A DNA stretch of 64,000 nt from the IMG/VR virus record IMGVR_UViG_3300047319_001547, positions 31,061 to 95,060 of that record. One strand, 5' to 3'. This DNA is from a virus. The first letter of the stretch is position 1. Each line of letters opens with the position of its first letter. The translations under genes were made by a program, and so were the position numbers. Below the pieces are notes generated by a model. It saw only the letters and a program-made list of their open reading frames with translations, ran no database searches and had not been told where the DNA came from. This document shows positions 39,322 through 62,085 of this stretch, piece by piece.

Positions 39322-39894
39322 ATGCAGCGCCAAGACGGAGTGAGACCGGGACGAGTTGTGCGGATCCGCGAGATCGATCTCGCGCGAGTGGGGAACTGCT
39401 GGATGAAGGGCCGACTGCTCGTCGACGATCTCGCGATGGCGATCAGCCACTCGGGCGACTGCTTCTTCAACTACGAGCTTCTCGACTCGTTCCTGCACTA
39501 CGGGGGCGGTCAGGAGATGAGGGTCGGGTATCGAAGGATCCCGGGGAGCAGGTTCGGCGCCTACACGCTGGGGGTGGCGCACGAGTTCCAGCCGAGCGAG
39601 CGGGAGTTCCACCTGCTGATGGCGGGTGAGAACGTCTCGTTCGAGAGCCAGCGGGTTGGAACTCGAGTTCCAAGGGCGCGCCTGGACCCCGACGGGACCG
39701 CCACCGGCAAGACGATCCTGACGGGCCACGTCGTGGCGGGGCGGGAGGGGACGATGCACCACGGGCCGGGCGACACCCACGTCGACCTCGAGACGGGCCG
39801 CCGCACGCCGCTGGGGGCCCGCCGCAGCCCTCCCGGCAAGGCGGAGGGGCGCCGGGTAGTCTCCCACGGCCGGACGCGTCTGAAGGGCGCGTAG
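39322..39894 (+). CDS. Hypothetical protein
   Basis: First ORF of the replication module; start uncertain. Confidence 0.5.
   Translation: MQRQDGVRPGRVVRIREIDLARVGNCWMKGRLLVDDLAMAISHSGDCFFNYELLDSFLHYGGGQEMRVGYRRIPGSRFGAYTLGVAHEFQPSEREFHLLMAGENVSFESQRVGTRVPRARLDPDGTATGKTILTGHVVAGREGTMHHGPGDTHVDLETGRRTPLGARRSPPGKAEGRRVVSHGRTRLKGA
39657..39672. repeat. Palindrome copy 9 (intragenic, reads GTRVP)
   Basis: Exact match; a 13/16 degenerate copy lies at 39575-39590. Confidence 0.97.
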
Positions 39895-39917
39895 GCGCCG
39901 GGCGGCATCATCGCTGG

Positions 39918-41339
39918 ATGACGGCGGTGGTGCGGGACTCCCGGGTGCGGGTCTGCCTGGAGGGGCTGCCCGAGGAGGCGGGAGACCGAATCCGCGCAGC
40001 CTTCACGCACCCGAACCCCCGGCACGGCGATCTGAGGCGCCCCGACGAACCGCGTTTTCTGCGGACGTGGCGGAACGACCGCGGGATGCTGACGGTGCCG
40101 CGCGGCGGCTGGCGGCGCGTTCGGGACGCCCTGCCGGGCGCGTCGTTCGCGGACGCGTGGACGTGGCGCCATCCCGAGCGGGACTTCCCCGACCATCTTC
40201 TGGAGGCGCGCGACTACCAGCGGGAGATGATCGACGCGGCCGCGGTCGGGGAGACGGGGATCCTGCGCGCCCCCACCGGCAGCGGGAAGACGACGGCGGC
40301 GTTCGGGCTGCTGGCGCGCCTGAAGCGCCGGGCGCTGGTGCTGGTCTGGACCAAGAACCTGTTCGAGCAGTGGAGGGAGCGCGCCGGCGCGGAGCTGGGC
40401 CTTACGGGCGACGACGTCGGCATCATCCACGGATCGACGACCCGCATCCGGCCGCTGACGATCGCCATGCAGCAGACCGTCCACTCGCGCTTCAAGCGCG
40501 ACCTCTCGCTTGCGGGCGAGTTCGACGTCGTGGTGGCGGACGAGATCCAGCGGGCCGCCGCCGACACCATGTATGCGGCGATCGACCCCTTCAGCGCCCG
40601 CTATCGGATCGGCATCTCGGCCGACGAGACGCGGCGCGACCGGATGGAGCAGCTCACCTACGACCTGTTCGGCGACGTGCTTCACTCGGTCGACAACCGG
40701 AAGCTCATCGACTCCGGGGCGGTGGTGGACGTCGAGATGCTGGTGGTGCCGACCGACTTCCGGGCCGGCTGGTACCGCTTCCGGCAGGACTTCAACCGCC
40801 TGCTGGCCCAGATGACGACCGACCCGGACCGCAACGCGCTGCTGCTGGACGTGGCGCGCCGGATCGTCTCTCAGGGGCAGCAGTGCCTGATCTTCACCCA
40901 CCGGGTCGAGCACGCGCGCGACATCGACGCCCGACTGACCGAGATGGGGATCCGAAGCGGAACCCTCATAGGCGGCGTCGAGAACGAGATCGCGTTCGAG
41001 CGATCCAAGACGGGACTGAAGTCCGGCGCGGCGCGCGCGGGGGTCGGCACCTACGGGGCGATCGCCCAGGGGCTGGATCTTCCGACCGTCGCGCGCGGGA
41101 TCTGCGCGACCCCGATAGGGAACAACAGACAGCAGATGGGGCAGGTGCGCGGCCGCCTCTGCCGAGAGCCGGGCGGCAAGGGGATCGCGCGGCTGGTCTA
41201 CCTGCTGGACCGGCAGGTGTACGGCACCAAGCCGGTCAGGAACTTCCTCGACTGGTATGGGGTCGTGCGGGTTCTCGAGGGTCGGGAGTGGATCGACGGC
41301 GCCGCTTGGCTGAATGCCCAGAAGGGGAATCGACGATGA
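39918..41339 (+). CDS. SF2 helicase (XPB/UvsW-like)
   Basis: RDYQ, APTGSGKT, DEIQ, GLDLP, QVRGRLCR. Confidence 0.88.
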   Translation: MTAVVRDSRVRVCLEGLPEEAGDRIRAAFTHPNPRHGDLRRPDEPRFLRTWRNDRGMLTVPRGGWRRVRDALPGASFADAWTWRHPERDFPDHLLEARDYQREMIDAAAVGETGILRAPTGSGKTTAAFGLLARLKRRALVLVWTKNLFEQWRERAGAELGLTGDDVGIIHGSTTRIRPLTIAMQQTVHSRFKRDLSLAGEFDVVVADEIQRAAADTMYAAIDPFSARYRIGISADETRRDRMEQLTYDLFGDVLHSVDNRKLIDSGAVVDVEMLVVPTDFRAGWYRFRQDFNRLLAQMTTDPDRNALLLDVARRIVSQGQQCLIFTHRVEHARDIDARLTEMGIRSGTLIGGVENEIAFERSKTGLKSGAARAGVGTYGAIAQGLDLPTVARGICATPIGNNRQQMGQVRGRLCREPGGKGIARLVYLLDRQVYGTKPVRNFLDWYGVVRVLEGREWIDGAAWLNAQKGNRR

Positions 41340-41794
41340 GAAAGCGAAGTTCGGTTGCGGGAACCGTCACGGAAGTCAGCCGGGAGCTCGCGAAGAGTCT
41401 CGAATACGTCCGAATGGACGAACCTGAAATTCGAATCCCACCTGGAACTCGAGTTCCAGATCCGGGATTCCCTATGCAGGAAATGGAGGCGGCCAGCAAT
41501 GCCATTTTCGCCGAAGCGCGATCGGCGATGAATGAAGACGCAGTTGGCTCGATCGTGGAGGCGACCTGGGGTGAGGAACTCTTTCAGCCGCTGCAGTTCA
41601 ACACGTTTCGGGTCGGCCCCTTCAAAGCCAGCACGGTTGTGCGTGACGGCGAGACGATCGCAAATGCGATGATTCGTCTTCATCGAGAACTCGATTCGGC
41701 CGCCGCGCAGATTCGCACTCACAAGATCGACGGGTATCTCCGCGCTCTTGTAGATGTCGGTGAGGAAGTTCAGATCCGGCAAAGCAAACGATGA
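41336..41794 (+). CDS. Hypothetical protein
   Basis: ATGA coupling on both sides. Confidence 0.55.
   Translation: MRKRSSVAGTVTEVSRELAKSLEYVRMDEPEIRIPPGTRVPDPGFPMQEMEAASNAIFAEARSAMNEDAVGSIVEATWGEELFQPLQFNTFRVGPFKASTVVRDGETIANAMIRLHRELDSAAAQIRTHKIDGYLRALVDVGEEVQIRQSKR
41443..41458. repeat. Palindrome copy 10 (intragenic, GTRVP)
   Basis: Exact match. Confidence 0.97.
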
Positions 41795-42309
41795 AGCCGC
41801 CCAACGACCTGTTCGACGATCTGCCGTTCGCGCCGCCGACCAAACGCGGCGTCGCCGCCGAGCAGTTCGCCCGCATGGCGGACGCCAAGCAGGAGCAGAT
41901 CGACCGGCGTCCGAAGGGCTTCAAGCTGTCGCCGACCTCGATCGCGAAGGCGAAGCGCGAGATGGACGAGATGGCGGACGCGGGGGAGTGGACGAGCGCG
42001 CGGGGCGTCCACCTCGTGGCGCTCTACAGCTGGCTTCACGTGGCGATCTACGGCGTCGAGCCCGCGGAGCTCGACGGGCGCGAGTGGGCGCTGGCAAGCG
42101 TGTTGGCGCAGCGCTTCTGCGCCACCAACTTCGAGGGAGACTTCGGGGACTGCGTGGAGTTCATGCGGTGGGTGTGGAAGCGCGAGGCGTCTCGCGAGGA
42201 GTACAGGCGCACCCAGAAGCAGTCGGGCGGCAGGATCGGTTGGCGGCTTCAGTTCGGGGCGGCTCTCGTCACCGACTGGCGGGTCGACCGCGCGAGGGTG
42301 AGCAGATGA
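41791..42309 (+). CDS. Hypothetical protein
   Basis: Coupled ORF in the replication operon. Confidence 0.6.
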   Translation: MKPPNDLFDDLPFAPPTKRGVAAEQFARMADAKQEQIDRRPKGFKLSPTSIAKAKREMDEMADAGEWTSARGVHLVALYSWLHVAIYGVEPAELDGREWALASVLAQRFCATNFEGDFGDCVEFMRWVWKREASREEYRRTQKQSGGRIGWRLQFGAALVTDWRVDRARVSR

Positions 42310-42524
42310 GATGGAGACGAAGAAGGTTTGCGCGAATCCGAAGATCCAACAGGCGACTCGTCGAGAGTCTTCGGATTCAGATCCGCGATGACGTGAAGGC
42401 GGGCCGCATGGCGATCGTCGGCGGAGTCGCGATGCCGAGAACTCTCGCGACTGTCGTCCGCACCATGAAGGGGAAGATCCTGGAGAAGCTCCGGATCGAG
42501 GCAAACTTCGATGCGTCAGAGTGA
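42306..42524 (+). CDS. Small basic hypothetical protein
   Basis: ATGA coupling. Confidence 0.4.
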   Translation: MRWRRRRFARIRRSNRRLVESLRIQIRDDVKAGRMAIVGGVAMPRTLATVVRTMKGKILEKLRIEANFDASE

Positions 42525-42846
42525 CGGCTGGCCGGACGGCGCGATCGTCGGGTGCGGGATCGGCATCTGCTGGCGCGTGTTCGCGCCGCGTTGGTGGGAG
42601 CTGGGGAGGTGGGTGAACTGGCTGTTCGATCATCGCCCGCACGGATCGCTGACCTTCACGATGACGAACGCAGGACTGCCGGATCGAAAGTTCGATATTC
42701 GCGTCGTGCTGGCCGACTACGCGCCGCCGAACGTGCCCACCACCGAGGCGACGATCGTCCTGTCTGGCACGACGCCTGAAGTCGAGCGTCGCGTGGGCAA
42801 ACGGGTCCGCGGCTGGTACGGCAAAGGCGCAAGGCGGCGGATGTAG
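42511..42846 (+). CDS. Hypothetical protein
   Basis: Fills the gap before DnaB. Confidence 0.45.
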   Translation: MRQSDGWPDGAIVGCGIGICWRVFAPRWWELGRWVNWLFDHRPHGSLTFTMTNAGLPDRKFDIRVVLADYAPPNVPTTEATIVLSGTTPEVERRVGKRVRGWYGKGARRRM

Positions 42847-44298
42847 ATGCAGGGCGAGCGACGCGGCGCCGAACTAATTTTCCGGGCGGATCCCGTCACG
42901 GAGCAGACCGTGCTGGCGGCCGAGATGGCGGACGCCGAGGTGGCGCGCGCCACGACCGACCGCGTTCCGGCCGACTCCTTCCTGGCGCCCGAGCATCAGG
43001 CGATCCAGCGCGCCATCCGGGAGGCAGTCAGGCGCGGGCTGGGCCGGGACCCGTCGACGCTCGCAAAGCTTTCGAACGGCGAGGTGGAGGTCGGCTACCT
43101 GGCGGAGCTCTCAAGCTCGCGCCCGACCGCGCCGGACGCCGCGACGCTGAAGTTCCACGTCGACCAGCTGCTTTGGGACCACCAGCGCTACGTCGCCATG
43201 ACGGGCCCGGTCTCGAGCCTCATGGAGGCGATCGAGAAGAACGAGTCACCGGAGCGCGTGCGCGCGCTGGCGCGCTCGATCGGGACGTCGTTCGACGGGT
43301 GGTCGGACCGCCGCCACCTTCACGACCCCGATCAGCTGATACGCGAGCAGATCGCCGACGTGAAGCTCCGGATGTCGGGCCGCGCCGTCTACCCGTTCGG
43401 CCTGCCGGGGCTCGACCTGTTCGACAACCCCGACGGCACGCCGTCCGACCGCCGCCGCGTCATCCCGGGCGCCGCACCGGGACTCGTGACGGTCGTGACG
43501 GGTGTGCCGGGCAGCGGGAAGAGCACGCTGGTGGCTCGCAAGGCTCTCGGCCTGGCGCGCCAGAAGCGCCGCGTGCTGTTCGGCGCGTGGGAGATGCGGC
43601 CCGGCACGACGCTGGAGCTCATCGCATGCCTGTCGCTCAACTGGTCGCGCTCCGACCTGACGGAGGGAAAGATCGTCCCCGAGCAGCTGGCGCAGCTTCA
43701 GCTCCGGATGGAGCAGCTGTCGAAGTGGATCCGGTTCCTCGAGAACCCGTTCCGGCGCCGCGCCGGCGGGAAGGTGACGAACGAGGGAAACCTGGACGTC
43801 ATTCAAGGCTATCTGGCGGACGCCGCGTGCGACGTCTTCATAGCCGACCTCTGGAAGCGCTGCCTGAAGGAGACGCGCCCCGAGGACGAGGAGGAGGCTC
43901 TCTATCGCCAGCAGGCCATGGCGGAGGAGATGGGGGTTCACGTCATCCTGGTGCAGCAGCAGCGCCTGAAGGACATCGAGCTGCGGCCCGACAAGCGCCC
44001 GACCCGCGAGGGCATCAAGGGCAGCGGCGCCTGGACGGAGGTGCCGGACAACATCTTCGGCGTCCACCGCCCCGCCCTCTGGAAGCCCGTCCCGGACAAC
44101 GTCCTGGAGATCGACGTTCTGAAGCAGCGCTACGGGAAGTGGCCGCTGGCGGTCGAGTTCGACTGGGACCCGGACCGGGGACAGATCTCGGGCGGACGGT
44201 CGGTCGAGTACGACCAGGCGGCCGCGATGGGGGAGGGCGGATCGAATCCGATCGATCAGAAGCTGCACGCCGGAAGGGGCGGCAAGAAGAAGTCATGA
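42847..44298 (+). CDS. dnaB: DnaB-like replicative helicase
   Basis: GVPGSGKST, WEM, IADL, KRPT...IKGSG, KQRYG. Confidence 0.88.
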   Translation: MQGERRGAELIFRADPVTEQTVLAAEMADAEVARATTDRVPADSFLAPEHQAIQRAIREAVRRGLGRDPSTLAKLSNGEVEVGYLAELSSSRPTAPDAATLKFHVDQLLWDHQRYVAMTGPVSSLMEAIEKNESPERVRALARSIGTSFDGWSDRRHLHDPDQLIREQIADVKLRMSGRAVYPFGLPGLDLFDNPDGTPSDRRRVIPGAAPGLVTVVTGVPGSGKSTLVARKALGLARQKRRVLFGAWEMRPGTTLELIACLSLNWSRSDLTEGKIVPEQLAQLQLRMEQLSKWIRFLENPFRRRAGGKVTNEGNLDVIQGYLADAACDVFIADLWKRCLKETRPEDEEEALYRQQAMAEEMGVHVILVQQQRLKDIELRPDKRPTREGIKGSGAWTEVPDNIFGVHRPALWKPVPDNVLEIDVLKQRYGKWPLAVEFDWDPDRGQISGGRSVEYDQAAAMGEGGSNPIDQKLHAGRGGKKKS

Positions 44299-44783
44299 GA
44301 GTCGAGCGTGAAATAAGGCATCCGGAGACCGACTGCCCCCGGGGCGAGCACTGGAGGACCCGCATCGAGTTCGACGACGAGTTCGGCGTCACGTACCTGG
44401 CGGACGAGCAGCTGACGAGCGCCGCCAAGCGGGCGCAGTTCATCGAGGGCACGACGCTCGAGTTCACCGAAGAGACGGTGAGGTGGGTGCACGCGACGTT
44501 CGGTGAGCTGATTCGCTACTGGGATCGCCGCAACGGAGACCCCAAGAAGCCAGATCTTCCACTGGCGCGCCCGCAGAACGACGTCGACCACGTCGAGGCG
44601 CTGAAGTTCGTCGCCGACGACGCGAAGGCGGCTTTCAAGGAGTGGGAAAAGGGACCGCCCACCGATCAGATCGACGAAGAGTTGGCGGACGCGATGGGCG
44701 AGCTCCGAATCTCGCTCGACCGACTGAGGAAGATCGAGAGCAAGGTGGTGCCGATCCGCGCGCTGGAAGACGAGGACTCATGA
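44295..44783 (+). CDS. Hypothetical protein
   Basis: ATGA coupling. Confidence 0.55.
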   Translation: MRVEREIRHPETDCPRGEHWRTRIEFDDEFGVTYLADEQLTSAAKRAQFIEGTTLEFTEETVRWVHATFGELIRYWDRRNGDPKKPDLPLARPQNDVDHVEALKFVADDAKAAFKEWEKGPPTDQIDEELADAMGELRISLDRLRKIESKVVPIRALEDEDS

Positions 44784-45268: not shown

Positions 45269-45459
45269 CGCGCGCCACCAAGCAGGCGCGCGAGGTTGTG
45301 CGGATGTTCCGCGTCATCCTGAAGCTCGAAGACGAACTGCAGAAGGCGCACGGCGAGGGCAGCTGGGAGAAGTCGTGGGAGATCGCCGTCCGGCTGCGCC
45401 GCGCCATCAAGGCGTCCCGCCATCAGGTTGATCGATTCGCCGACCTGATAGGGGACTAG
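45265..45459 (+). CDS. Small hypothetical protein
   Basis: ATGA coupling. Confidence 0.45.
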   Translation: MTRATKQAREVVRMFRVILKLEDELQKAHGEGSWEKSWEIAVRLRRAIKASRHQVDRFADLIGD

Positions 45460-45460
45460 C

Positions 45461-46447
45461 GTGGTCGCGCCGGTCGACCGCGCGCTTGAGAAGCTCGGGA
45501 TCGTCGCTCAGCGCCGGGGCGGAAGATGGTGGGCGGAGAACTGCCCGCTGCCGACTCACGGCCAGCCGAATCCCGAGCATCGTTGGCAGAACTTCTTCGT
45601 AAGAGACAACCGTTCGCCGCGTCCCGGACAGTTCCACTGCTTCAGCTGCAAGTCGGGCGGGACGCTGGTCGAGCTCGTGATGGCGATGCGCGACGTCGAG
45701 TTCGCAGACGCGGCCGATTGGCTCAGGACGCTGGGCGAGCAGGCGCCGCCACCAGTCCTCAGCGTGAGGTTCGACCCGACGGGCCCGCGCGTCTTCCGGA
45801 TGCCTGTGGGGGTCGAGTTCACGCCGCTCGAGGAGTGGAACAGCGTGCCGCGCTCCTACCTGGAGGGGCGCGGAGTCGACTCTCAGCAGGTGAAGGGGTG
45901 GGGGATCGGCTACGCGCTGGAGGGCAGGCTGGCGGGCAGGATCGTGATCCCGATCCGGGACCAGCGGGGCCGACTGGCGAACTACGCGGCCCGCACGTTC
46001 GTCGGCGACGAGACGCGCTACCTGGCGGCTCAGTCGAGCGAGCGGCCCGACAAGTCCGCCCTCTGGGGGGAGGAGTTCTGGAAGGAGCCCGGCTACCTGC
46101 TGACCGGGCGGGACGTCGTGGTGGTGTTCGAGGGGGCGCTGAACGGCCTGGCGATCGAGCGCGCTCTGCGGAGTTGGAACTCGAGTTCCAGGCCGTCGCT
46201 GGCGGGCCTTCAGGGCAGCGAGCTCGATCACCGAAGGCTCGCGAAGCTCGGGACCTTCCGGACGATCGTCTGCGCGACCGACCCCGACCGGGCGGGCGAC
46301 CGGGCGGCGCGCGAGATCGCCGCCGCGCTGGGACGCCGCGCGGACGTCCGGAGGGCGCGCTATCCTGACGAGCGTGACGCAGCCGACCTGCAGCGATGGG
46401 AGCTCGAAAAGATGCTCGCCGAGACGACGTCCCATCAATGGGAGTGA
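45461..46447 (+). CDS. dnaG: DNA primase (Zn finger + TOPRIM)
   Basis: CPLPTH...HCFSC, YLEGRG, RIVIPIRD, FEG, DPDRAG. Confidence 0.88.
   Translation: MVAPVDRALEKLGIVAQRRGGRWWAENCPLPTHGQPNPEHRWQNFFVRDNRSPRPGQFHCFSCKSGGTLVELVMAMRDVEFADAADWLRTLGEQAPPPVLSVRFDPTGPRVFRMPVGVEFTPLEEWNSVPRSYLEGRGVDSQQVKGWGIGYALEGRLAGRIVIPIRDQRGRLANYAARTFVGDETRYLAAQSSERPDKSALWGEEFWKEPGYLLTGRDVVVVFEGALNGLAIERALRSWNSSSRPSLAGLQGSELDHRRLAKLGTFRTIVCATDPDRAGDRAAREIAAALGRRADVRRARYPDERDAADLQRWELEKMLAETTSHQWE
46175..46190. repeat. Palindrome copy 11 (inside primase, WNSSS)
   Basis: Exact match. Confidence 0.97.
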
Positions 46448-46475: not shown

Positions 46476-46661
46476 ATGGGGGTCGACCGGGAGCTGACGA
46501 TCCGCCACGTGCTGGCCCTGGAGAGCGGCTGCGTGACGGCGGCCGCCCGGCGCCTCACCATCACGCGCGAGGCTCTCTGGCAGCACATGAGGAGCCTGGG
46601 GATCGGCTCCCTGCCGAAGCGGCTGCGCGACGAGGCTCGCCGAAGGTTCGTCGTGCCGTAG
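46476..46661 (+). CDS. Fis-type HTH protein
   Basis: GCVTAAARRLTITREALWQHMRSLGI. Confidence 0.65.
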   Translation: MGVDRELTIRHVLALESGCVTAAARRLTITREALWQHMRSLGIGSLPKRLRDEARRRFVVP

Positions 46662-46680
46662 CGGCATCCAAGATGGCAAG

Positions 46681-46872
46681 ATGACGTTCCGCCTGACCGA
46701 CATGGCCTACCTGGTGAGATCCGACCCCGCGCGCGCCCGGCGCAAGCTGAAGGCCGCGCTGAAGAAGAGCGGGGGAGACGTCACGCAGGCGGCGTTCCAG
46801 TTCGGCGTGACGCGCCGCACGTTCGACCGCTGGACGGCGCTCGTGCAGGCCCACGCCCTCCCACCTATCTGA
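46681..46872 (+). CDS. Fis-type HTH protein
   Basis: ALKKSGGDVTQAAFQFGVTRRTFDRW. Confidence 0.7.
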   Translation: MTFRLTDMAYLVRSDPARARRKLKAALKKSGGDVTQAAFQFGVTRRTFDRWTALVQAHALPPI

Positions 46873-49235: not shown

Positions 49236-51137
49236 ATGAAATCCCACCACAACGCTAAGGCGATCGAAGCTCAGTACGAGGTGAGGATCGGCGGCGATTC
49301 TCGCTGGCAGCATCAGGCGCGAGATCTCCGAGATCTGCGTCGGGCTACTTCCGGGGATTCGTGGCGCGTTCTTTACGTGGCCTTCATGGGCAGCGGGAAG
49401 ACGGTCGTCGCCGCGAAGCTCGTGAACGAGTGGGTGGCCGCCGGCCAGCGCGCCCTGGTGCTGACCCACCGCCAGGAGATCCTCGAGCAGACGGACGCGA
49501 AGCTACGGAAGGCCGGGATCTCGGAGGAGAAGATCGGCATCATCTGGCGCGACAGCCCGCGCGCAAATCCGTCCGCTCCCGTCCAGCTGGCGAGCATCGA
49601 CACGCTTGTGCGACGAGATCGCCCGGAGGGCATCACCCGAATCGTCATCGACGAGGCGCATCACGCCGCCGCCGCGAAGTGGCGGAAGGTACTGGCGTGG
49701 TATCCGGGCGTCCCGATTCTCGGCATGACCGCCACCCCCGAGCGTCTCGACGGCAAGCCGTTAGGCGATCTGTTCGACACGATGGTGGAGAGCGATCCGC
49801 CCGAGACACTCATCAACGCCGGCACGATCTCCCGCCCGGAGGTCTACGGGCGAGACGACGACTGGATGCCCGACATGACGGGCAGCAAGAAGCGCGGTGG
49901 AGATTGGCGTCCCGAGGACGCAGCGGCCGCGATGTCCGGGACTGTCATCGTCGGGTCGATCCCGGGTCACTGGCGCAAGCACGCCGAGAACCTGCCGACC
50001 GTAGGGTTCGCCGCGACGGTCGCGCAGGCCGAGGGGCTGGTCGCTGCCTTCATGAAAGCGGGGATACGCGCCGAGCTGCTGGTCGGCACGATGAACTCGT
50101 TCCGGCGCCGGGGAGCACTTGCGAGGCTGAAGAGCGGCGAGACGAAGGTGCTGTGGACGTGCGACGTTCTGGGCGAGGGGTGGGATTACCCGGGGGCGCG
50201 CTGCGCCATCTTGGCCCGCCAGACGTGCTCGCTGGCTCGTTACCTTCAGTGGTGCGGGCGCGTCATGAGGGCGGGCGCCGTCACGCCGAAGATTCTCGAC
50301 CACTGCGGGAACTACAGCATCCACCAGGGGCCACCCTGGCAGGACCAAGAGTGGGATCTCCACAAGAAGAGAGGAGACCGGAAGATCGTCGCGCGGAAGG
50401 CAGAGGGAGGGCGCGTCGAGTGGCTGCCGCCTGTCCAGATCGAGGGGCAGTTGGTGCGGTTGGGAGAGAAGCCGAGACAGAGGGTTTGCGCAGGAATCCC
50501 CGGGAGAAATTGTGATAAAATCCCTCATAGGGCGGCGTTTTATTCGAAGCAAATTCAAAGCCGACGCGGCGAACCGTGGCGATGCAAATCGTGCGCCGCT
50601 CATCCGAATGTTCTGCTGCCCCAAGAATATTGTGCTGGGTCGGGTGACGGGCTGCTGTGTAAAAATAAAACGCCCGTACGGGCGTTTTCTCCTAAACAGA
50701 CTCGTTCTAGAAATGGCGAACCGTGGATTTGCCAATCGTGTTTTCTGAAGAAAAGAGATAGACACATAGTAAATAGGCAATTGGTATGTGATGGGTGTTT
50801 TGGCGAGCCTTGCCCGAAGGCGGCAATTCCTCCGCGCAAGGCATTGCATCCGAGCAGTTTTAGAAACCGAGGCGGTCCTTGGAAGTGCGTCAGCTGTGCT
50901 ATGCGTAAAACCGCTCCATCGACGCAGCTTATTTGTGCTGGATGGAAAGGAAAATGCCCAAGCGCAGCGGTTCCCGTCAAGCACGCGTTCAATCCGGCAA
51001 TTGTCAGAAGTCGAAATGGCGAACCGTGGCGATGCAAATCGTGTGGCGCTAGAAAAGCTACAGATACGATTGGTAAAAGTCGGCTGCGAGAGATCAGACA
51101 ACGCGCGTGGGACAGCCGGAAGGGGAAGAAGTCGTGA
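49236..51137 (+). CDS. SF2 DEAH helicase with four C-terminal Cys4 repeats
   Basis: MGSGKT, DEAHH, TATP, EGWD, QWCGRVMR. Confidence 0.85.
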   Translation: MKSHHNAKAIEAQYEVRIGGDSRWQHQARDLRDLRRATSGDSWRVLYVAFMGSGKTVVAAKLVNEWVAAGQRALVLTHRQEILEQTDAKLRKAGISEEKIGIIWRDSPRANPSAPVQLASIDTLVRRDRPEGITRIVIDEAHHAAAAKWRKVLAWYPGVPILGMTATPERLDGKPLGDLFDTMVESDPPETLINAGTISRPEVYGRDDDWMPDMTGSKKRGGDWRPEDAAAAMSGTVIVGSIPGHWRKHAENLPTVGFAATVAQAEGLVAAFMKAGIRAELLVGTMNSFRRRGALARLKSGETKVLWTCDVLGEGWDYPGARCAILARQTCSLARYLQWCGRVMRAGAVTPKILDHCGNYSIHQGPPWQDQEWDLHKKRGDRKIVARKAEGGRVEWLPPVQIEGQLVRLGEKPRQRVCAGIPGRNCDKIPHRAAFYSKQIQSRRGEPWRCKSCAAHPNVLLPQEYCAGSGDGLLCKNKTPVRAFSPKQTRSRNGEPWICQSCFLKKRDRHIVNRQLVCDGCFGEPCPKAAIPPRKALHPSSFRNRGGPWKCVSCAMRKTAPSTQLICAGWKGKCPSAAVPVKHAFNPAIVRSRNGEPWRCKSCGARKATDTIGKSRLREIRQRAWDSRKGKKS

Positions 51138-51853
51138 GCTCCGAAGCGGCGAAGCTTCTCGATGACGCGGCGCACGCGCTCCGCGCCGGCACCATCACGG
51201 CGAACGAGTTCCTGAAGAGGACAGGTCCCCGCTGGCGCTCGACCGCGCGCCATCTCCACACGCGATGGCGCAGGAAGCTGCCGGCGTGGGTGGAGCGTGA
51301 CGACGTCGAGCAGGAGCTGAAGATCTTGGCGGTCGAGTTCGTCCGTACGTGGGACGCGGATCGATCCACCCGGGCGTCCCTCGGCAGCTACGTGATGTGG
51401 TGCGCGGTCCACCGCACGCAGCGCAAGATGGATCACTGGCGCGGCGCGTCCCTGACGGGCAACTCCGGGAAGAACCCAGGACGCCACGAGCTGGCGTTCT
51501 CGCGCGTCTACGACCCGGCGGACGGCGACCCTGGAACTCGAGTTCCAGCTCCCGAAGACGACCCGATCGATCGGCTGGAGTCGGGCGAGCAGTTCGAGAT
51601 CATCCTGGCGCGCTGCCAGACGGTCCGCCAGGCGCTCGTCCTGCTGGCCCTCAGGGCGACCGACGGGGCGGTCGACAAGGCGGCTGACGCCCTCTGGCGG
51701 AACTTCAGGGCCCGCCTGGAGTGCGACCTCAGGAGCGAGCAGCACGCCGCCGAGGTGGTGCGGCGCGTCATCGAGGAGTGCGAGTCCCTGGGGGAGGCGC
51801 CGGCCGACGTCCGGCCGCCCGCCGACCTGTTCGACGAAGTCGGCGCGGCATAG
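51134..51853 (+). CDS. Sigma70-family-like factor
   Basis: Region-2-like DDVEQE...AV..WDADR...SLGSYV. Confidence 0.6.
   Translation: MSSEAAKLLDDAAHALRAGTITANEFLKRTGPRWRSTARHLHTRWRRKLPAWVERDDVEQELKILAVEFVRTWDADRSTRASLGSYVMWCAVHRTQRKMDHWRGASLTGNSGKNPGRHELAFSRVYDPADGDPGTRVPAPEDDPIDRLESGEQFEIILARCQTVRQALVLLALRATDGAVDKAADALWRNFRARLECDLRSEQHAAEVVRRVIEECESLGEAPADVRPPADLFDEVGAA
51532..51547. repeat. Palindrome copy 12 (inside sigma-like gene, GTRVP)
   Basis: Exact match. Confidence 0.97.
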
Positions 51854-51864: not shown

Positions 51865-52857
51865 ATGGAGAAGCCCGACTTTTCGAAGCTCGACCCCGAG
51901 TCGATGTATCCCGTCCTGCTGCAGTTCGGACTGCAGACGAGCGGCGACCACGCGATCCACGCCGAGCGGCTGTTCGAGTACTTCGCCGACCGTAAGGATC
52001 TGTCGGGCCCGTGCGACAACTGCGGCGCCTGCTCGCCGAACCTGCTCGCCGTCTGCCCGTTCTGCGGCGTCGGCGAAGAAGCTCCCCCGGTGGCATCCGT
52101 GCTGGCCGGCGCCGTCCCACTGCCCCCACCCAAGACTCTCAAGGAGAAGCCGATGACGACCAGCATCACCAAGTCCGCGCCCGACACCGTCCAGACCGCA
52201 TCCGTGAAGCTGCTCGATCAGGCGGTCGCAGACATCAAGCGCATCCAGGCGACGCTCGGCGCCAACTCGTGGGCGCTGGCGGTCAAGCTCACGCAGGTGA
52301 ACGAGAGCGAGATCTGGAAGACGCGCCGCAACGAGGTCGGGACGGTCGCCTACAAGACGTTCGAGCAGTTCACCAAAGCGGAGGTGGGGTTCGGCCGCAA
52401 GCAGGCGCAGGACCTGATGCGCATCCAGGCCAACTTCACCGAGCAGGAGGTGTCTGACTACGGCTCGTCGAAGCTGCGTCTGGTCCTTCAGGCGGCGCCG
52501 GAGATGAAGTCGCGGCTGCTCGGCCGCATCAAGGCGGGCGCCTCCACGAAGGAGGTCGAACAAGAGGCGAGGAAGAACCCGGCGGACCCGAAGAAGAGTC
52601 ACGCCCAGAAGCGCAGCAAGAAGCCGGTCGCGACGAACGCCATCACGGTCGCGCAGATCGAGGGCAAGAAGATCGTCCGCGCGTACGCGAAGCCGTCGGG
52701 CAAGAAGGACGCCGAGCTGGTGCCGGCCACGAAGATCTCCGACGTGCCGTGGGGGCACATCGACCTGGCGAACGACGTGAGGCTGTTCATCAGCCTGATC
52801 GCGGCGCCGTCCGGTGAGCTCTCCTTCAGGCTCGACTTCAAGCGCAACGAGAAGTGA
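51865..52857 (+). CDS. Zn-finger + HTH-like putative DNA-binding protein
   Basis: CDNC...CPFC; YKTFEQF...VGFGRKQAQDLMRI. Confidence 0.55.
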   Translation: MEKPDFSKLDPESMYPVLLQFGLQTSGDHAIHAERLFEYFADRKDLSGPCDNCGACSPNLLAVCPFCGVGEEAPPVASVLAGAVPLPPPKTLKEKPMTTSITKSAPDTVQTASVKLLDQAVADIKRIQATLGANSWALAVKLTQVNESEIWKTRRNEVGTVAYKTFEQFTKAEVGFGRKQAQDLMRIQANFTEQEVSDYGSSKLRLVLQAAPEMKSRLLGRIKAGASTKEVEQEARKNPADPKKSHAQKRSKKPVATNAITVAQIEGKKIVRAYAKPSGKKDAELVPATKISDVPWGHIDLANDVRLFISLIAAPSGELSFRLDFKRNEK

Positions 52858-53186: not shown

Positions 53187-55733
53187 GTGAACGAACCGGC
53201 GTACGTCAACGGGTTCGTCGACGGCGCCGATCTGGTGCTGCTCTACCGAGACGACGCCGGGCAGATGATGGCGCGCAGGAAGCGCGCCGAGTGGTCGAAC
53301 TTCTTCCGGCGCGCTGATGTCCCAGAACGCGTGTTGCGCGACCTGCGCAACAGCAGCCGCGTGGTGGGGATCTCCGAGGAGGGGGAGTGGACGCGGGTCC
53401 GCTGGCAGGCTCCCGAGTGGCGCCGGAAGATCTTCGGGCTGGAGCGCGGCCGCGATTCGGTCGACTTCTTCAAGTCGGAGCTCGGCATCGATCACTTCGA
53501 GGCGGACGTGGATCCGATCCGCCGCTTCTTCTCCGACACGGGCGCCGAGGTGGCGCTCCCGCGCCGCGCCTACCTGGACATCGAGACCGACTCGCGCGTC
53601 TCGCCCGTCCTGGCCCGCCAGGGAAAGGCGCGCGTCCTCTGCTGGACGCTCTGCCGGGAGGACGAGAGCATCATCGCCCAGGGGTGTCTGGCGGAGGAGA
53701 GCGACGAGGCGGAGGCCGCCATTCTGGAGCACCTCTGGCGGTCGCTGGAGCCGTACGACCAGGTGGTGGCGTGGTACGGCGACGGGTTCGACCATCCGAT
53801 CGTCCGCATGCGGGCAGACATCGTCGGGGCGCGCCACAAGGACTTCCGTCGCTGGCTGTTCGTCGACCACATGGTGGTGTTCGAGCGCAACAACAAGAAC
53901 AGCGCGGAGTCGGGCGACGAGAAGGTGAGCCTGAAGCTTCAGGACGTCGCGATGGCGAAGGTGGGCGAGGGCAAGTCCGATTTCGACGCGTCCAAGACGT
54001 ACGAGGAGTGGGCGGCCGGGGGAGAGCGGCGCCAGCGGATGGTCGACTACTGCGCGCAGGACACTCGACTGCTGCCGAAGATCGAGAAGAAGACGGGATA
54101 CCTGGCGCTGCACGACGCGGTCTGCGTCGTCACGCGCTGCTTCTCGGAGACGCGCTCCGCGCAGCCCACGATCTTCGTCGACGGCTTCATGCTGCGGCTC
54201 GGCGCCGAGCGGAACCTGCACTTCCCGACGCGGAAGTACCAGTTCGAAGAGGAGAAGAAGGACCACAAGAAGTTCCGCGGCGCCTGGGTGATGGAGCCGA
54301 CCAAGAAGGGAATCGTCAAGAACGTCCACGTGGCGGACTTCTCGGGCATGTATCCGAGCATCATCGAGACGTGGAACATGTCGCCGGAGACGAAGCGCGA
54401 CATCCCGGTGAACGGTCCGATCCCGCCCGGCCACTGCCGGGCACCGTCGACCCGCATCGGGTTCGTGACGAGCCCGCAGGGCATCCTGGCGTTCGCGGTC
54501 GAGGAAATAGGTCGCACGCGGAAGGTCTGGAGCAAGAAGCAGGCGGCGCTGCCGCCCGGCACGCCCGAGTGGCGCTACGCCGGGCAGCTCTCGATGGCGT
54601 TCAAGGTCGTTCGCAATTCGTTCTACGGAGTCGCCGGCAGCCCGGCCGCGCGGTTCTTCGATCCCCAGATCGCGGAGTCGATCACGCAGAACGGCGTCTG
54701 GCTGATTCAGATGACGATCAACGAGGGGGACAAGCGCGGGATCGAAGCCATCTACGGCGACACCGACGCGCTGAATGCCACCCAGACGACGCGCGAGCGG
54801 TTCGCGGAGTTCGTCGAGTGGTGCAACCGGGAGCTCTATCCGCCCGCCATCGCGGCGACGGGCTGCACGGAGAACCGCGTCGAGATCGCCTACGAGAAGG
54901 AATTCGAGCGAATCGTCTACGTCTCATCGAAGCGGTACTGCGCGACGTGGGCTCACTACAAGTGGACGGCGTCCTGCAGCTGCACGACCGACAAGGGCGA
55001 GCCGGGCGCGCTCGACATCCGGACGATGACGTGCCGGGACTGCGGACTCCATCACGCCGCGCTGCCGCCGCCCCGGGGCGAGCCGGAGGTGAAGGGACTC
55101 GAGTACAAGCGGGGAGACGCAGCCAAGCTGGCGCGCGCCCTTCAGTGGAGCTGCATCCAGAAGCTGATGGTCGACCTCTCAGAGGAGCCGACCGACTTCG
55201 TGCCGATCGTCGAGAAGATGCGCGACTACGTGCTGACGGGGGATCTGCCGGTGAAGGAGGTGCAGATCTCGAAGTCGATCTCGAAGTCGCTGAAGGAGTA
55301 CGCGACCAAGGAGAAGAAGGACGGAACGCCGACCGAGGATCTGGCGCACGTGAAGATCGGGAAGATCCTGCGCGAGCGAGGCCAGCAGATCGTCGAGGGA
55401 ACGCGGATCTTCTACTACGTGGTGGACGCGTCGGTGTCGCCCCAGATCGTCGCGCCGGCCGACGACTACGCGGGCGAGTGCGACCGCCACTACCTCTGGG
55501 ACTCTCTCATATGGCCCGCGACCGGCCGGCTGCTGGCGGCCGCCTTCCCGGATCACGACTGGAGCCCGTACGAGAAGACGCGCCCGCGGAAGGTGCGGGG
55601 ATCGTCGAAGGAGCAGACCGCGTTCGACCTGCCTGGAACTCGAGTTCCAACTCAGCGTCGCGGCGGCCGCGGTGCACCGCTCGGCCAGGGGGCGCTGTTC
55701 GACCTGCCGTCGCCGGCGGCATCAAGCAAGTAG
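53187..55733 (+). CDS. polB: Family B DNA polymerase
   Basis: ExoI LDIETD, DFSGMYPSII, KVVRNSFYG, YGDTD, KRY. Confidence 0.93.
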   Translation: MNEPAYVNGFVDGADLVLLYRDDAGQMMARRKRAEWSNFFRRADVPERVLRDLRNSSRVVGISEEGEWTRVRWQAPEWRRKIFGLERGRDSVDFFKSELGIDHFEADVDPIRRFFSDTGAEVALPRRAYLDIETDSRVSPVLARQGKARVLCWTLCREDESIIAQGCLAEESDEAEAAILEHLWRSLEPYDQVVAWYGDGFDHPIVRMRADIVGARHKDFRRWLFVDHMVVFERNNKNSAESGDEKVSLKLQDVAMAKVGEGKSDFDASKTYEEWAAGGERRQRMVDYCAQDTRLLPKIEKKTGYLALHDAVCVVTRCFSETRSAQPTIFVDGFMLRLGAERNLHFPTRKYQFEEEKKDHKKFRGAWVMEPTKKGIVKNVHVADFSGMYPSIIETWNMSPETKRDIPVNGPIPPGHCRAPSTRIGFVTSPQGILAFAVEEIGRTRKVWSKKQAALPPGTPEWRYAGQLSMAFKVVRNSFYGVAGSPAARFFDPQIAESITQNGVWLIQMTINEGDKRGIEAIYGDTDALNATQTTRERFAEFVEWCNRELYPPAIAATGCTENRVEIAYEKEFERIVYVSSKRYCATWAHYKWTASCSCTTDKGEPGALDIRTMTCRDCGLHHAALPPPRGEPEVKGLEYKRGDAAKLARALQWSCIQKLMVDLSEEPTDFVPIVEKMRDYVLTGDLPVKEVQISKSISKSLKEYATKEKKDGTPTEDLAHVKIGKILRERGQQIVEGTRIFYYVVDASVSPQIVAPADDYAGECDRHYLWDSLIWPATGRLLAAAFPDHDWSPYEKTRPRKVRGSSKEQTAFDLPGTRVPTQRRGGRGAPLGQGALFDLPSPAASSK
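55634..55649. repeat. Palindrome copy 13 (inside PolB C-terminal tail, GTRVP)
   Basis: Exact match. Confidence 0.97.
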
Positions 55734-56903: not shown

Positions 56904-56922
56904 GGCCCCAGGAGAAGAGCAG

Positions 56923-58257: not shown

Positions 58258-59420
58258 TGGCGCGCCGCAAGCCTGCAGCAGATGAGAGCGCGGCCGACTT
58301 CGCGCCCGAGCTTCCCCCGAAGCATCCGGGCGCGAAGATCTTCGCCGACATCGCGGCGTCGACCGAGAGCTTCCGGCCGGCGCGCGAGACGCTGAAGAGG
58401 GTCCGGGCCGTCCCGACGATCTTCCCGGACGTCGACCGCAAGACGCGGGTGGGCGGCTGGCCGATCGAGCGCGTGTCTCTCGTCCACGGCCCGAGTGCGG
58501 CCGGCAAGACGCTGCTGTGCCACGGTGTCGGGCTGTCGTTCCTTCAGCGCGGCCACATGTACAACTTCGTCGACGCCGAGCTGACCACCCCCATCACGTG
58601 GCTAGAGCAGCTGTTCGGCCCGCACGCCGACTCGAGCGCCTTCCTGGCGAGCCGCCCCACCACATACGAGCAGGCGGTCGACGACATCCGGAAGGTCGCG
58701 GAGGGGCTGGCGGAGGCGCGCGAGAAGGAGCGGGTGCCGCCCCACACGAGCGCGCTGTTCGTCGTCGACTCGATCCGCAAGCTGGTCCCGAAGGACCTGA
58801 TGAAGCGCATTGAGAAGATGGGTGCGACGGGCGACAAGGGGAGCGTCGACGGCTACGGGGGCGGGGCGGCGCGCCTGAAGGCCAACCTGAACGCGTCGTG
58901 GCTCGACGAGCTCGGGCCGCTCATGTACCGGACCGGCTGCGCCATCATACTGGTGGGGCGCGAGTCGGACGACGCGACCGCGAGCGCGCGCGACCGACAG
59001 TTCGGCAGCGACTGGAAGCTGACGGGCGGCAAGGCGCTGTTCTTCGACAGCTCGCTGGTGGTGCGGGTCTCGCTCGCCGGCAAGGTGAAGGACGGCGCGG
59101 GTGAGGACGCGAAGATCGTCGGAGAGCGCCACCTGGTGGAGATCCACAAGACGAAGGTCAGCGAGAAGCAGGACCGCGTCGAGAAGGCGTATTTCCACAC
59201 GACCGCGCGAGGGTTCGACCGCGCGCGCGACATCCTGCGGATCGCCGACGAGCTGGGGGTCATCAAGAAGTCCGGCACGTGGCTGACGTTCGACGGCCAC
59301 CGCTGGCAGGGCGAGGCGCGGTTCGCCGAGAAGGCAGATGAAGAAGTGCTGGACGCGATCGAGGCGTCGTGCCGGGCCAAGTTCGACGACGAGGCGAAGC
59401 AGCTAGCGGACCATGTCTGA
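58257..59420 (+). CDS. recA: RecA/UvsX recombinase
   Basis: GGWP, GPSAAGKT, FVDAE, VVDSI, GGKALFF. Confidence 0.9.
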   Translation: MARRKPAADESAADFAPELPPKHPGAKIFADIAASTESFRPARETLKRVRAVPTIFPDVDRKTRVGGWPIERVSLVHGPSAAGKTLLCHGVGLSFLQRGHMYNFVDAELTTPITWLEQLFGPHADSSAFLASRPTTYEQAVDDIRKVAEGLAEAREKERVPPHTSALFVVDSIRKLVPKDLMKRIEKMGATGDKGSVDGYGGGAARLKANLNASWLDELGPLMYRTGCAIILVGRESDDATASARDRQFGSDWKLTGGKALFFDSSLVVRVSLAGKVKDGAGEDAKIVGERHLVEIHKTKVSEKQDRVEKAYFHTTARGFDRARDILRIADELGVIKKSGTWLTFDGHRWQGEARFAEKADEEVLDAIEASCRAKFDDEAKQLADHV

Positions 59421-59428
59421 GACGCGCG

Positions 59429-59821
59429 ATGTTCACGATAGAACGCTGCCTGCCGCACCCTCTCTGCGAGGCTGAATTCCTCGTCGTCGATGAAGTTCGG
59501 CGTCTCCTCCCGGGGGCCACCGTCGAATTCCAAACAATGATTTCGCCGACCATGCTGTTCGACGTCGGCGTGATGCGCGTTCGCAAGGGAACGAAGATTC
59601 TGGAGATCTCTCTGGCGCTCGACGGGTTGGCTCACGCGGACGACTTCGGCGCCGGCATGATCGATCTCATTCTGAAGACGTTCCGAGACGCGGTTGTGCA
59701 CCTGCTGTTTCCGACATTCCGGATCGGCCGCGCTGCTCCGCGCCATCTGAAGCCCGCCATCCTGGATCGTCCGGAGGCGAAACCCTGGAGGAAGTTTCGA
59801 TGCTCCCGATTCTTCTGCTGA
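59429..59821 (+). CDS. Hypothetical protein
   Basis: ORF filling the operon. Confidence 0.45.
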   Translation: MFTIERCLPHPLCEAEFLVVDEVRRLLPGATVEFQTMISPTMLFDVGVMRVRKGTKILEISLALDGLAHADDFGAGMIDLILKTFRDAVVHLLFPTFRIGRAAPRHLKPAILDRPEAKPWRKFRCSRFFC

Positions 59822-60228
59822 TCGCGTCGTGGCTTCACCCAGGAGCTGAGACGCGCCACCGCGCCTTTCTGGAGACGGTCGCAAAGTCATCACCCAGTGA
59901 GGAGATCGCCGCCGAGGAGCTCGTGTTCGCCGAGCACGAGAGCCGGTTCGGCGACGCGCTGAACGGCGTCCACTGGGACCCGGAGGCTCACGGGATCCTG
60001 CAGATACGCGGCTGGGGGAGTCGGTTGGATCGCGACGAGGTGGCGAGCGCACGCGCGTGGCTTCAGATCCGCGCCAAGGCAGCGAAGGCGTGCGGTGAAG
60101 AGAGCGCGCTCGCGGGGCTGTCGTCCGGCCACTGCGACCGTGCGATCCAGCTTGCGGGAGAACGCGCCGCGGAGGCGCGCTGGCTTCTGGGAATTGCTCG
60201 ACTGGTGCAAAGATGCCGAGGCCGTTGA
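59800..60228 (+). CDS. Lytic transglycosylase/lysozyme-like protein with hydrophobic N-terminus
   Basis: EHESRF and AHGILQI resemble SLT motifs I and II. Confidence 0.5.
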   Translation: MLPILLLIASWLHPGAETRHRAFLETVAKSSPSEEIAAEELVFAEHESRFGDALNGVHWDPEAHGILQIRGWGSRLDRDEVASARAWLQIRAKAAKACGEESALAGLSSGHCDRAIQLAGERAAEARWLLGIARLVQRCRGR

Positions 60229-60890
60229 CCGGTACCGTTCGCTACGACGTCAAAAAAGGGGCGTATCAGTATAAGCTGACGCTTCCAGACGGAAGCAGAA
60301 CGCCCTGGATCGCCGTAACTCCAACGGCGAGGAGCGCGATTGCCGAGGCACGAGTTCGCGAGGTGGCTCTAGAGGCATCACAATTGGCGCATCAGACGTG
60401 TGCGTGTAGAGCGGAATTTCTCGTCGAGAAATCTGTAGCGCCCGACGATTTGATTGACGTTGGTCCGCCGATCCAAAACTTTCGTTGTCCATTTATTCGG
60501 GATCCGGCTGTCCAAAAGAAAGAACGCATCAAGCAACTCAAAGAAAAGTTCGCGGTTAGAGTTTGGGCAAAAGAAGCGATTCGGTCTGCGAGACGACGAG
60601 CGGTCAAAAGAGGCTTAGATTTCGATCTCGATGAGTGTTGGCTCATCGGTAAGTTGGCGATGATTTCAACAAGGTGCCCCGCGCTAGGCACGCTCTTGAA
60701 ATTTTCTGCCAAAGGGTATGATCCGTCGTCGGCTAGCCTCGATCGAATTTTGCCAAATCTGGGATACGTAAAGGGAAACGTCGAGATTATTTCGCGAAGA
60801 GCGAATACAATAAAAAACGACGCAACCCCAGAGGAACTAGTGCGAATTGCTCGTTGGGTATCTCGCGCGCGCGGCAACGGAAGTCCGTGA
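60213..60890 (+). CDS. HNH-family endonuclease (lower GC)
   Basis: CPALG...SASLDRILPNLGYVKGNVEIISRRANTIKND. Confidence 0.75.
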   Translation: MPRPLTGTVRYDVKKGAYQYKLTLPDGSRTPWIAVTPTARSAIAEARVREVALEASQLAHQTCACRAEFLVEKSVAPDDLIDVGPPIQNFRCPFIRDPAVQKKERIKQLKEKFAVRVWAKEAIRSARRRAVKRGLDFDLDECWLIGKLAMISTRCPALGTLLKFSAKGYDPSSASLDRILPNLGYVKGNVEIISRRANTIKNDATPEELVRIARWVSRARGNGSP

Positions 60891-61621
60891 GCCGAATCGT
60901 CAATTCGTCCGACTGGCATACAGACGCCGCAACGTACGGCGTCCAGCGATTCCAGGACGTCGGCGACGCGGTACGGCAGACGGTGCGCGCTGCGATTGCC
61001 GAGAAGGCGGATCTGTATCTGTTCACCGGCGATCTCTGCGATCCGGACGACGGGCCGTGGGCTCTGCAGAGCATCGGGTTCATCATCTCGGTGGCGGTCG
61101 AACTGTCGCGCCACGGGATCCCCTTCTGGGCGATCGCCGGCAATCACGACGTCATCGACGACGGGACGGGACGGACGACGCTGACGCCGCTGCGCGACAT
61201 CGGGCTTCCGGAGGTGAGGGTGTTCGAGCAGCCGGAGATCGCCACCATCCCCGGCAAGTCGAAGTTCGACCCCGACCATCGGCCGGTTCAGATGCTGGCG
61301 CTGCCCTTCACCGCGACGTCGCACTCGTACGACCCCACGATGGCAGTCGAGATGGCGGCCGACCGGCTGGGGATGCGGGCAGTCGTGGCGGGCCACATGA
61401 CGAGCCTCGAGAGCGTGCGGGAGGGCGAGGAGACGACCGAGATGCCGAGGGGCCGCTCGATGAGGTTCCCGATCGAGAGCTGCCGGCCCGGATGGCTGAA
61501 GATAAACGGCCACTGGCACGAGCGTCAGGTCTGCAACGGCGTCCACATCCCGGGGTCGGTCGCGCGCCTGTCGTTCGGCGAGGAGCGCAACACGCCCGGC
61601 TACCTCGTCTTGGAGATCTGA
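60887..61621 (+). CDS. sbcD: SbcD/Mre11-like nuclease domain
   Basis: SDWH, TGDLCD, GNHD, GHWH, PGS...SFGE. Confidence 0.85.
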   Translation: MSRIVNSSDWHTDAATYGVQRFQDVGDAVRQTVRAAIAEKADLYLFTGDLCDPDDGPWALQSIGFIISVAVELSRHGIPFWAIAGNHDVIDDGTGRTTLTPLRDIGLPEVRVFEQPEIATIPGKSKFDPDHRPVQMLALPFTATSHSYDPTMAVEMAADRLGMRAVVAGHMTSLESVREGEETTEMPRGRSMRFPIESCRPGWLKINGHWHERQVCNGVHIPGSVARLSFGEERNTPGYLVLEI

Positions 61622-62085
61622 TGGCGCGCCGCAAGCAGCCTGAAACGAAACGTCGACAGTTGGCCGCAAGTGCCGACGGTTTGGAACTCGAGTTCCAGGT
61701 CGACGTGAGGGAGCTGGAGGGCGACCGGCCGCTGGTCAGGATCGCCGCCGACGATCAGATCTGGCAGACCGTTCTGCTGCACGACGCGTGGGACTCGACG
61801 CTCGACCCCGCACTGAAGGGCGCGATCGTGCGCATCGATCCGCCGATCGACTGCGACGAAGCGGTGATCGACACCGTCCAGTCCTGCTGCGAGCGAGCAG
61901 GAGCACTGGCGGTCCGAGCGTCGCCCCGCCGGCGCAGCAGGACGCTGACCGATCAGCCGGCGCGCCAGAAGGCGCACCACCGCGCGCGGGAGGTCGTCTG
62001 CGAGCTGGTGGCGGCCGCGAACGTCGAGGACCAAGCCGCGCTGGCGGCATTCTGCGAAACCGTGATGGCCCGTGTCGGGCTCTGA
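61621..62085 (+). CDS. Probable separately encoded SbcD C-terminal domain
   Basis: TGATG coupling; GAIVRI...GALAV; lies between sbcD and sbcC. Confidence 0.5.
   Translation: MARRKQPETKRRQLAASADGLELEFQVDVRELEGDRPLVRIAADDQIWQTVLLHDAWDSTLDPALKGAIVRIDPPIDCDEAVIDTVQSCCERAGALAVRASPRRRSRTLTDQPARQKAHHRAREVVCELVAAANVEDQAALAAFCETVMARVGL
61682..61697. repeat. Palindrome copy 14 (intragenic, LELEFQ)
   Basis: Exact match. Confidence 0.97.

Follow-up and report, generated by a model that had tools for sequence, protein, structure and literature searches.

A dispersed palindrome in a virus genome

The DNA examined here is a window of 64,000 nucleotides, corresponding to bases 31061-95060 of the 95,060-bp virus record IMGVR_UViG_3300047319_001547 (designated G000). 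The element in question is an exact 16-bp palindrome, TGGAACTCGAGTTCCA, with 24 copies in the whole record, 14 of them in the window. The record has a GC content of 67% and its genes are located nearly all on the + strand; in the window they form two modules, one for a contractile-tail virion and one for replication. Both ends of the record are cut off, the first bases lying within a methylase open reading frame (ORF) and the last within an SbcC-like ORF, and they therefore represent contig ends rather than genome ends. Genes were called by third-position GC (0.88 for the genome) and codon log-odds, followed by Pfam, PHROGs and homology checks. The palindrome copies, named by window position, and the principal genes are collected in Table 1.

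Table 1. Location of the palindrome copies and associated genes (window positions unless marked G000, which refers to the whole record)
Feature	Position	Strand	Description
DNA methylase ORF	G000 1-507		N6_N4_Mtase, C-terminal part only; left end of record inside
Palindrome, eight further copies	4208, 9967, 16462, 18363, 23750, 27422, 36156, 38585 (span 4208..38600)		all intergenic
Palindrome	39657..39672		in ORF 39358-39894, reads GTRVP; coding signal on both sides
Palindrome	41443..41458		spacer between helicase 39918-41339 and small gene 41474-41794
DnaG-type primase	45461..46447	+	Zn ribbon, DnaG_N, Toprim
Palindrome	46175..46190		in DnaG-type primase, reads WNSSS; loop between Toprim EG and DPD motifs
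Two Fis-type mini-helix-turn-helix genes	46476..46872 (H1 46476-46661, H2 46681-46872)	+	alternative candidate readers; follow primase
Sigma-like protein	51134..51853	+	family profile matches FliA sigma region 2, E 4e-4
Palindrome	51532..51547		linker of sigma-like gene, reads GTRVP; linker acidic, Pro-rich (Pro/Asp)
Core gene of phage family	51865..52857	+	N-terminal Zn ribbon, predicted central ParB/Noc-type DNA-binding fold, C-terminal beta domain
Family B DNA polymerase (PolB)	53187..55733	+	profile matches
Palindrome	55634..55649		C-terminal tail of PolB, reads GTRVP; 33 codons before stop
Palindrome	61682..61697		spacer between SbcD nuclease ORF 60854-61621 and SbcD-C-like ORF (likely start GTG 61705)
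SbcC-like ORF	62337-63998		right end of record inside

With up to two mismatches allowed, the 14-bp core would be expected 0.31 times in the window, compared with the 14 exact copies seen. No copy with one or two mismatches was found in the whole 95,060-bp record, and a single one has three. Written with its flanks, the full site is YTGGAACTCGAGTTCCAR, and the half-site TGGAACTC occurs 51 times in total, 48 of these within full sites. The sole preference around the palindrome is for Y at position -1 and R at position +1, and the flank pairs at these positions are not complementary (C/G 8, T/A 3, T/G 5 and C/A 8).

Across 185,579 species genomes, approximately 120 single matches were found, scattered and at chance level, with no multi-copy stretch; the palindrome is therefore not a host repeat. 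The motif gave a single match, at chance level, in a viral contig collection, in which PolB as query also revealed no relatives, and GenBank phages yielded no match to the module by megablast. Full-text searches of the literature for the motifs returned only short hairpin RNA loops, and nothing was found on this phage family. An alignment search with the primase recovered 19 viral and 31 metagenomic loci. The G and L labels used below designate related genomes and loci.

By our own gene calls, some 8-10 of the 24 copies fall within ORFs. All eight copies of the virion module are intergenic, as an earlier note on this DNA had stated; most of them begin 3-7 nt past a stop codon and finish 15-60 nt before the next start. 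Downstream of copy 16462, the encoded protein begins after the motif with the signal-peptide-like sequence MMTGVKMLFLG. Two of the eight are located between divergent genes, whose starts are only 52 and 72 bp apart.

Palindrome copies in the replication module

The earlier note had placed all six copies of the replication module inside genes and in all three reading frames. All six are indeed exact 16-mers, and four of them (39657, 46175, 51532 and 55634) are truly intragenic, as judged by a third-position GC signal on both sides of the copy together with homology; the other two are located in spacers. Two reading frames are secure (GTRVP in three copies, WNSSS in one), and the third, which would read LELEFQ, appears only in doubtful ORF extensions. 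The motif contains no stop codon in any frame, as had been noted, and the intragenic copies occupy a loop, a linker and a tail in the primase, the sigma-like protein and PolB, respectively, again in keeping with the original description.

The ORF that carries copy 39657 is composed of two modules, each of which is a separate small protein in database homologues, and the motif falls exactly at the joint. In a metagenomic homologue (P0059) of the ORF at 39322-39894, GTRVP is likewise found just before the second module. A site at this same junction, upstream of the helicase, also occurs in L143, G001 and G003.

In the primase, alignment of 36 homologues shows that the loop holding the motif is hypervariable in both length and sequence and rich in indels, and the peptide is missing in most of them. 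The linker of the sigma-like protein also contains a palindrome in L004/L005, where it is the unrelated one proper to that lineage. The copy in PolB is positioned between the polymerase core and a clamp-binding-like motif, GQGALF (GQxxLF type), which is present near the PolB end in relatives too. Lineage-specific palindromes in or just after the PolB tail occur in G001, G003, L007, L008, L010, L011 and L012. A 12-nt direct repeat, GTTCGACCTGCC (window 55622-55708), adjoins the PolB-tail palindrome and recurs 47 nt beyond. As a result the motif FDLP is encoded twice, and the clamp-binding region has probably been duplicated locally.

The two remaining copies had been read as coding. The proposed GTRVP within an ORF at 41336 was not confirmed: the surroundings of copy 41443 lack the coding third-position GC signal, ATG 41474 lies 15 nt downstream, and homology of the small conserved gene begins about 24 codons past that ATG. 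This copy is probably intergenic. Likewise, the reading of copy 61682 as LELEFQ within an SbcD-C-like gene was not confirmed. The Metallophos (phosphoesterase) ORF is in a different frame and stops at 61621, such that the copy is outside SbcD, and homology of the downstream ORF begins just past the motif. The third-position GC of the 20 codons ahead of the motif is about 0.55 (hand count). G003 has a site at the same junction. In G001, as here (window 60854-62085), SbcD is divided between two ORFs, one for the phosphoesterase and one, in a different frame, for the C-terminal part.

Selection at the DNA level

The earlier note had proposed that selection acts on the DNA of the sites and not on the peptide, and this is borne out by codon usage, by the variability of the primase loop and by the closest relative. 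The GTRVP codons, GGA ACT CGA GTT CCA, are rare without exception, with synonymous fractions of 0.15, 0.05, 0.09, 0.07 and 0.04, respectively, and a product of 2e-6. The closest relative, L143, is a 12.7-kb metagenome contig with a primase that is 65% identical. At the same codon position of its primase loop it carries TGGAACCCGGGTTCCA, which reads WNPGSS. The site retains 14 of 16 bases, with identical arms, between primase genes that are 69% identical in nucleotide sequence, and a 3-codon indel adjoins it. In L143, the junctions of 38585 and 39657 are each occupied by a further copy, whose flanks are unalignable. At all three orthologous places the arms are the same and the centre is different.

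Spacing and placement of the sites

The copies are more evenly spaced than chance in five genomes. In the present record the gaps between copies have a coefficient of variation (CV) of 0.52 (P=0.0006), and the P value is also 0.0006 when sites are drawn from gene junctions only. The corresponding values are CV 0.61 (P 0.011) in G001, 0.58 (P 0.009) in G003, 0.56 (P 0.004) in G004 and 0.44 (P <0.0002) in G005; the partial record G002 gives CV 0.72 (P 0.13).

Synteny with G001 and G003 was compared genome-wide. A site is always found upstream of the helicase, and eight lineages have one in the PolB tail or just past the PolB stop. Several junctions are common to two genomes, and other sites have moved by one or two genes. 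Thus, density and neighbourhood are conserved while the exact positions turn over, which fits selection for coverage, and copies would enter genes because of such selection where spacers are lacking. The suggestion of the earlier note that coverage is kept is therefore upheld, here and in four relatives, with sites shifting between neighbouring permissive positions.

Lineage-specific sites in related phages

Each of the related phage records of ~80-110 kb that were examined closely has its own repeated dyad-symmetric site, with the exception of L017, in which no such site was found. The sites include GGGAACCCGGGTTCCC in G001, CGGAACCCGGGTTCCG in L003, GGAAACCCGGGTTTCC in G003, GGATGATCGATCATCC in L004/L005 and a 30-bp version in G005; GTCGCCCCGGGGCGAC, GTCTCCCCGGGGAGAC, GTTCACCCGGGTGAAC, GTAACCTCGAGGTTAC and others are found in further loci. 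The number of copies per whole record is 20 in G001, 18 in G003, 21 in G004, 20 in G005 and 15 in the incomplete G002.

The centre is CCGG or TCGA in twelve lineages, i.e., a symmetric difference of two bases at positions that would be unpaired in a hairpin. In G004, two variants of the half-site, GGAAAC and GTAAAC, combine at random (9 GG, 11 hybrid and 1 TT), and in G009 and G010 the inverted arms have inner positions that vary independently. Half-sites therefore vary independently of one another. Together with the non-complementary flanks and the copies in divergent gaps of 52 and 72 bp, this points to a dimeric protein on duplex DNA and not to a hairpin. Two variant arrangements were also observed: in L012 (5561-5625) two copies lie 49 bp apart upstream of the helicase, and in G005 (L201-L205) every site consists of two 12-bp palindromes, ATCCAATTGGAT, joined by CG.

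Candidate reader proteins

The likeliest candidate for a protein that reads the palindrome, as suggested by its structural model, is the 330-residue product of the core gene at 51865-52857, located just upstream of PolB within the replication operon. The family is found in 17 of 17 related genomes and loci examined. In the AlphaFold model the central domain (residues 107-237) is confident, with a predicted local distance difference test score of ~90, and its top Foldseek neighbours are the DNA-binding domains of ParB-parS, Spo0J-parS, Spo0J and Noc-NBS (probability 1.00). The respective VIA Z scores are 11.6, 11.2, 11.0 and 10.4, over 109-114 residues with a root-mean-square deviation of 2.4-3.5 A, compared with Z 4 for unrelated folds apart from Raf1. 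No such match was obtained by sequence, and the putative recognition helix varies between lineages, with no clean code when it is compared with the half-site sequence. Another gene, considered as a possible stand-alone ParB N-terminal domain, gave no more than a weak VapB-like match.

The two Fis-type genes that follow the primase are alternative candidates. Searches of G004 and G005 for H1 and H2 gave no match at E<=0.01, and the two rank below the core protein for this reason. A search of PHROGs with ten conserved unknown proteins assigned no function.

Several other features of the replication module were recorded. A conserved 172-residue protein (window 41791-42309), encoded between the helicase and DnaB, begins with the clamp-binding-like sequence NDLFDDLPF. 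An extra ResIII/Helicase_C helicase (window 49236-51137) lies between UvrD and the sigma-like gene in an island of lower GC (0.63); it is missing at that place in L143 and G001 and seems, therefore, to have been inserted recently. At window 50667-50688 there is a strong terminator-like hairpin, which is bidirectional.

Interpretation of the array

The sequences themselves establish the anatomy of the sites, selection on their DNA, the spacing, the turnover between lineages and the independence of half-sites; that a protein binds, which protein it is and what its binding brings about are inferred. In the explanation that we favour, and consider reasonably probable, the array is read on duplex DNA by a phage-encoded homodimer, and the sites are selected for coverage. 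One monomer would occupy each half-site of the 16-bp palindrome, and the selected property would be the presence of one site roughly every 4 kb. Copies would be placed in short intergenic spacers where these are available. In the tightly packed replication module they would be accommodated within genes, wherever a loop, linker, tail or former gene junction can absorb five or six additional residues, and the usually tolerated frame would be GTRVP, with its loop-friendly residues. Site and reader would co-evolve, such that each lineage comes to have its own arms and centre. The reader may be the 51865-52857 core protein, with a predicted ParB/Noc-type fold and no ParB CTPase domain. As to what binding achieves, we would guess at a function on the scale of the whole genome, for instance in the organisation or insulation of transcription or replication, and not at the control of single promoters.

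A more far-reaching version is tentative and, as a whole, rather doubtful. It envisages a family-wide parS/NBS-like system, in which a CTPase-less ParB/Noc-fold protein and ~15-24 evenly spaced, lineage-specific palindromes would organise the phage chromosome, for example by providing multiple loading points for replication, for the insulation of transcription or for packaging. Selection would then act on the spacing as such, and sites would thereby be pushed into genes.

A number of observations weigh against the favoured explanation. Z scores of ~11 are under VIA's own caution line of 13 for helical domains. The candidate recognition helix differs between L006 and L014, though the core site is the same, and all the covariation seen between site and helix is confounded with phylogeny. 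A six-frame search of the whole record for PF02195 (ParB N-terminal, CTP-binding) gave no match at E<=1, and the scanned ORFs contained no ParA, with integrase, recombinase, ParA and ParB families all absent at E<=1e-3. The total lack of degenerate sites is unusual for operators, and the favoured model does not account for the concerted change of arms or centre at ~20 sites. Finally, the palindrome of L008 extends over 30 bp, is flanked by runs of A and T, and would also form a strong RNA hairpin of -24 kcal/mol.

The sites could instead be ordinary operators of a temporal transcription regulator, in which case the copies at promoters would matter and the intragenic ones would be tolerated bystanders. 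All four TARGGT -10 elements with a leaderless ATG do lie 3-34 nt downstream of a palindrome, and the two copies between divergent genes would fit operators as well. Most copies, however, have no promoter-like neighbour (none was found between 36 and 56 kb), and the distance from palindrome to -10 element varies. Bystander sites would be expected to decay, yet the primase-loop site is kept in L143, and the spacing is too even. We therefore regard this explanation as unlikely. The earlier note had preferred elongation roadblocks or spacing-dependent loading sites to simple promoter operators; such mechanisms are hypothetical, and given the four copies close to TARGGT elements, some operator role is conceivable.

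A second dyad motif, TTAGACAACCTTGTCTAA and TGGACAAGCTTGTCCA, is associated with promoters of a different kind. It overlaps the -35 element of TAGGAT/TAGGCT leaderless promoters (G000 21771-21800 and 27004-27032, left of the window; L149:2261), and its 16-mer is also found in the G001 relative. A protein with sigma-70 region 4 only is encoded at G000 25721-26047.

A role as hairpins of RNA (or single-stranded DNA), which would end, process or stabilise transcripts at gene boundaries, is less likely still. It would suit the many copies that begin shortly past a stop codon, and relatives have stems of 10-16 bp, that of L008 being followed by a short U run. In the present phage, however, the core stem amounts to only about -7 kcal/mol (z -0.3 to -2.9), there is no T tail or T enrichment downstream, terminator-like calls were obtained for none of the 7 copies in 36-56 kb, and Rfam gave no match. 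The would-be loop positions covary symmetrically between lineages, the G004 hybrids would introduce a stem mismatch in 11 of 21 sites, the flanks are unpaired, and two sites are situated in divergent promoter gaps.

We give slightly less credence to a sequence-specific enzyme that would recognise the palindrome and act at its conserved central CG, be it a nickase, nuclease, methylase or replication initiator. The all-or-none nature of the sites and the invariable YCGR centre in 12 lineages would be in line with such an enzyme; the genome also contains an N6_N4 methylase and an HNH gene, and the candidate reader is encoded in the replication operon. On the other hand, neither G001 nor G003 has a counterpart of the methylase or the HNH gene, CTCGAG and CCCGGG occur in the genome at the expected frequencies, with no deviation, and the centres in G009 and G010 are asymmetric.

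Least probable of all is the spread of the palindrome by insertion, as a selfish miniature element of the type of REP/RAYT or Rickettsia palindromic elements. In favour of it, copies are identical, sometimes in-frame within genes and subject to turnover between relatives. However, Y1 transposase (PF01797) is absent at E<=1, and there are no target-site duplications: a 12-nt flanking repeat occurs at the PolB copy only, which chance would allow among 24 sites. Sites at orthologous places have been retained in diverged relatives with a changed centre, no bacterial genome contains the site as a repeat, and the spacing is even.

Comparison with known systems

The nearest precedent is provided by the Cluster O mycobacteriophages, to our knowledge the one group of phages whose invariant palindrome arrays have been treated in detail, with no function ascribed to them since 2015. 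The phages of this cluster (the Corndog group) carry 34 copies of a 17-bp palindrome of unknown function, one third of which are intragenic (PMC4351075). The repeat, TGTTCGGNNNCCGAACA, is composed of 7-bp inverted arms, which are invariant, and a variable 3-bp spacer; the copies are mostly not at promoters, the phages are apparently lytic, and a dimeric protein was predicted to bind (PMC4351075). The present array likewise consists of many copies with invariant arms throughout the genome, a substantial fraction of them intragenic and most away from promoters. In contrast to the Cluster O repeat, it has no unconserved spacer and is palindromic through an invariant centre, and both the sequence and the phage family are unrelated. 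As judged from the sequences, the resemblance is thus one of kind and not of homology.

The stoperators of Cluster A comprise 20-30 asymmetric sites of 13-14 bp, oriented with transcription and mostly off promoters (PMC6550527). They are bound by the monomeric immunity repressor of temperate phages, and the motif co-varies with the protein between lineages (PMC6550527). The number of sites across the genome and the lineage-varying motif are similar here. The palindrome of the present phage, in contrast, is perfect, and searches for an integrase, a repressor or partition genes found none. Nor do the weak stem of the sites and the lack of T enrichment downstream agree with intrinsic terminators, in which a T run follows a GC-rich stem.

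The NBS and OB sites of Noc and KorB are dispersed and partly intragenic, and the NBS centre is CCCGGG. The latter is also the centre of the sites in most relatives. In ParB-parS, Noc-NBS and KorB-OB (structures 6t1f, 4umk and 6y93), palindromes of 14-16 bp are bound by a dimer through a ParB-type helix-turn-helix, and the 16-bp palindrome described here is of comparable size. Unlike these proteins, the present candidate has no ParB N-terminal CTPase domain and no accompanying ParA, and possesses a Zn ribbon and a beta-rich C-terminal domain. Moreover, the sites that it would read are exact copies at even intervals along a virus genome of 95 kb.

Relative to the systems already described, the new elements are the even spacing, the lineage-specific versions across a phage family, the independent variation of half-sites and a candidate reader. 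The family supplies many natural variants of site and genome, along with a measurable constraint on spacing, sites that persist within genes and a concrete candidate reader; in combination, these open the question to binding assays and covariation analysis. If the ParB/Noc-like reading were true, arrays of the centromere type would extend to lytic-looking phages that have neither ParA nor the CTPase domain.

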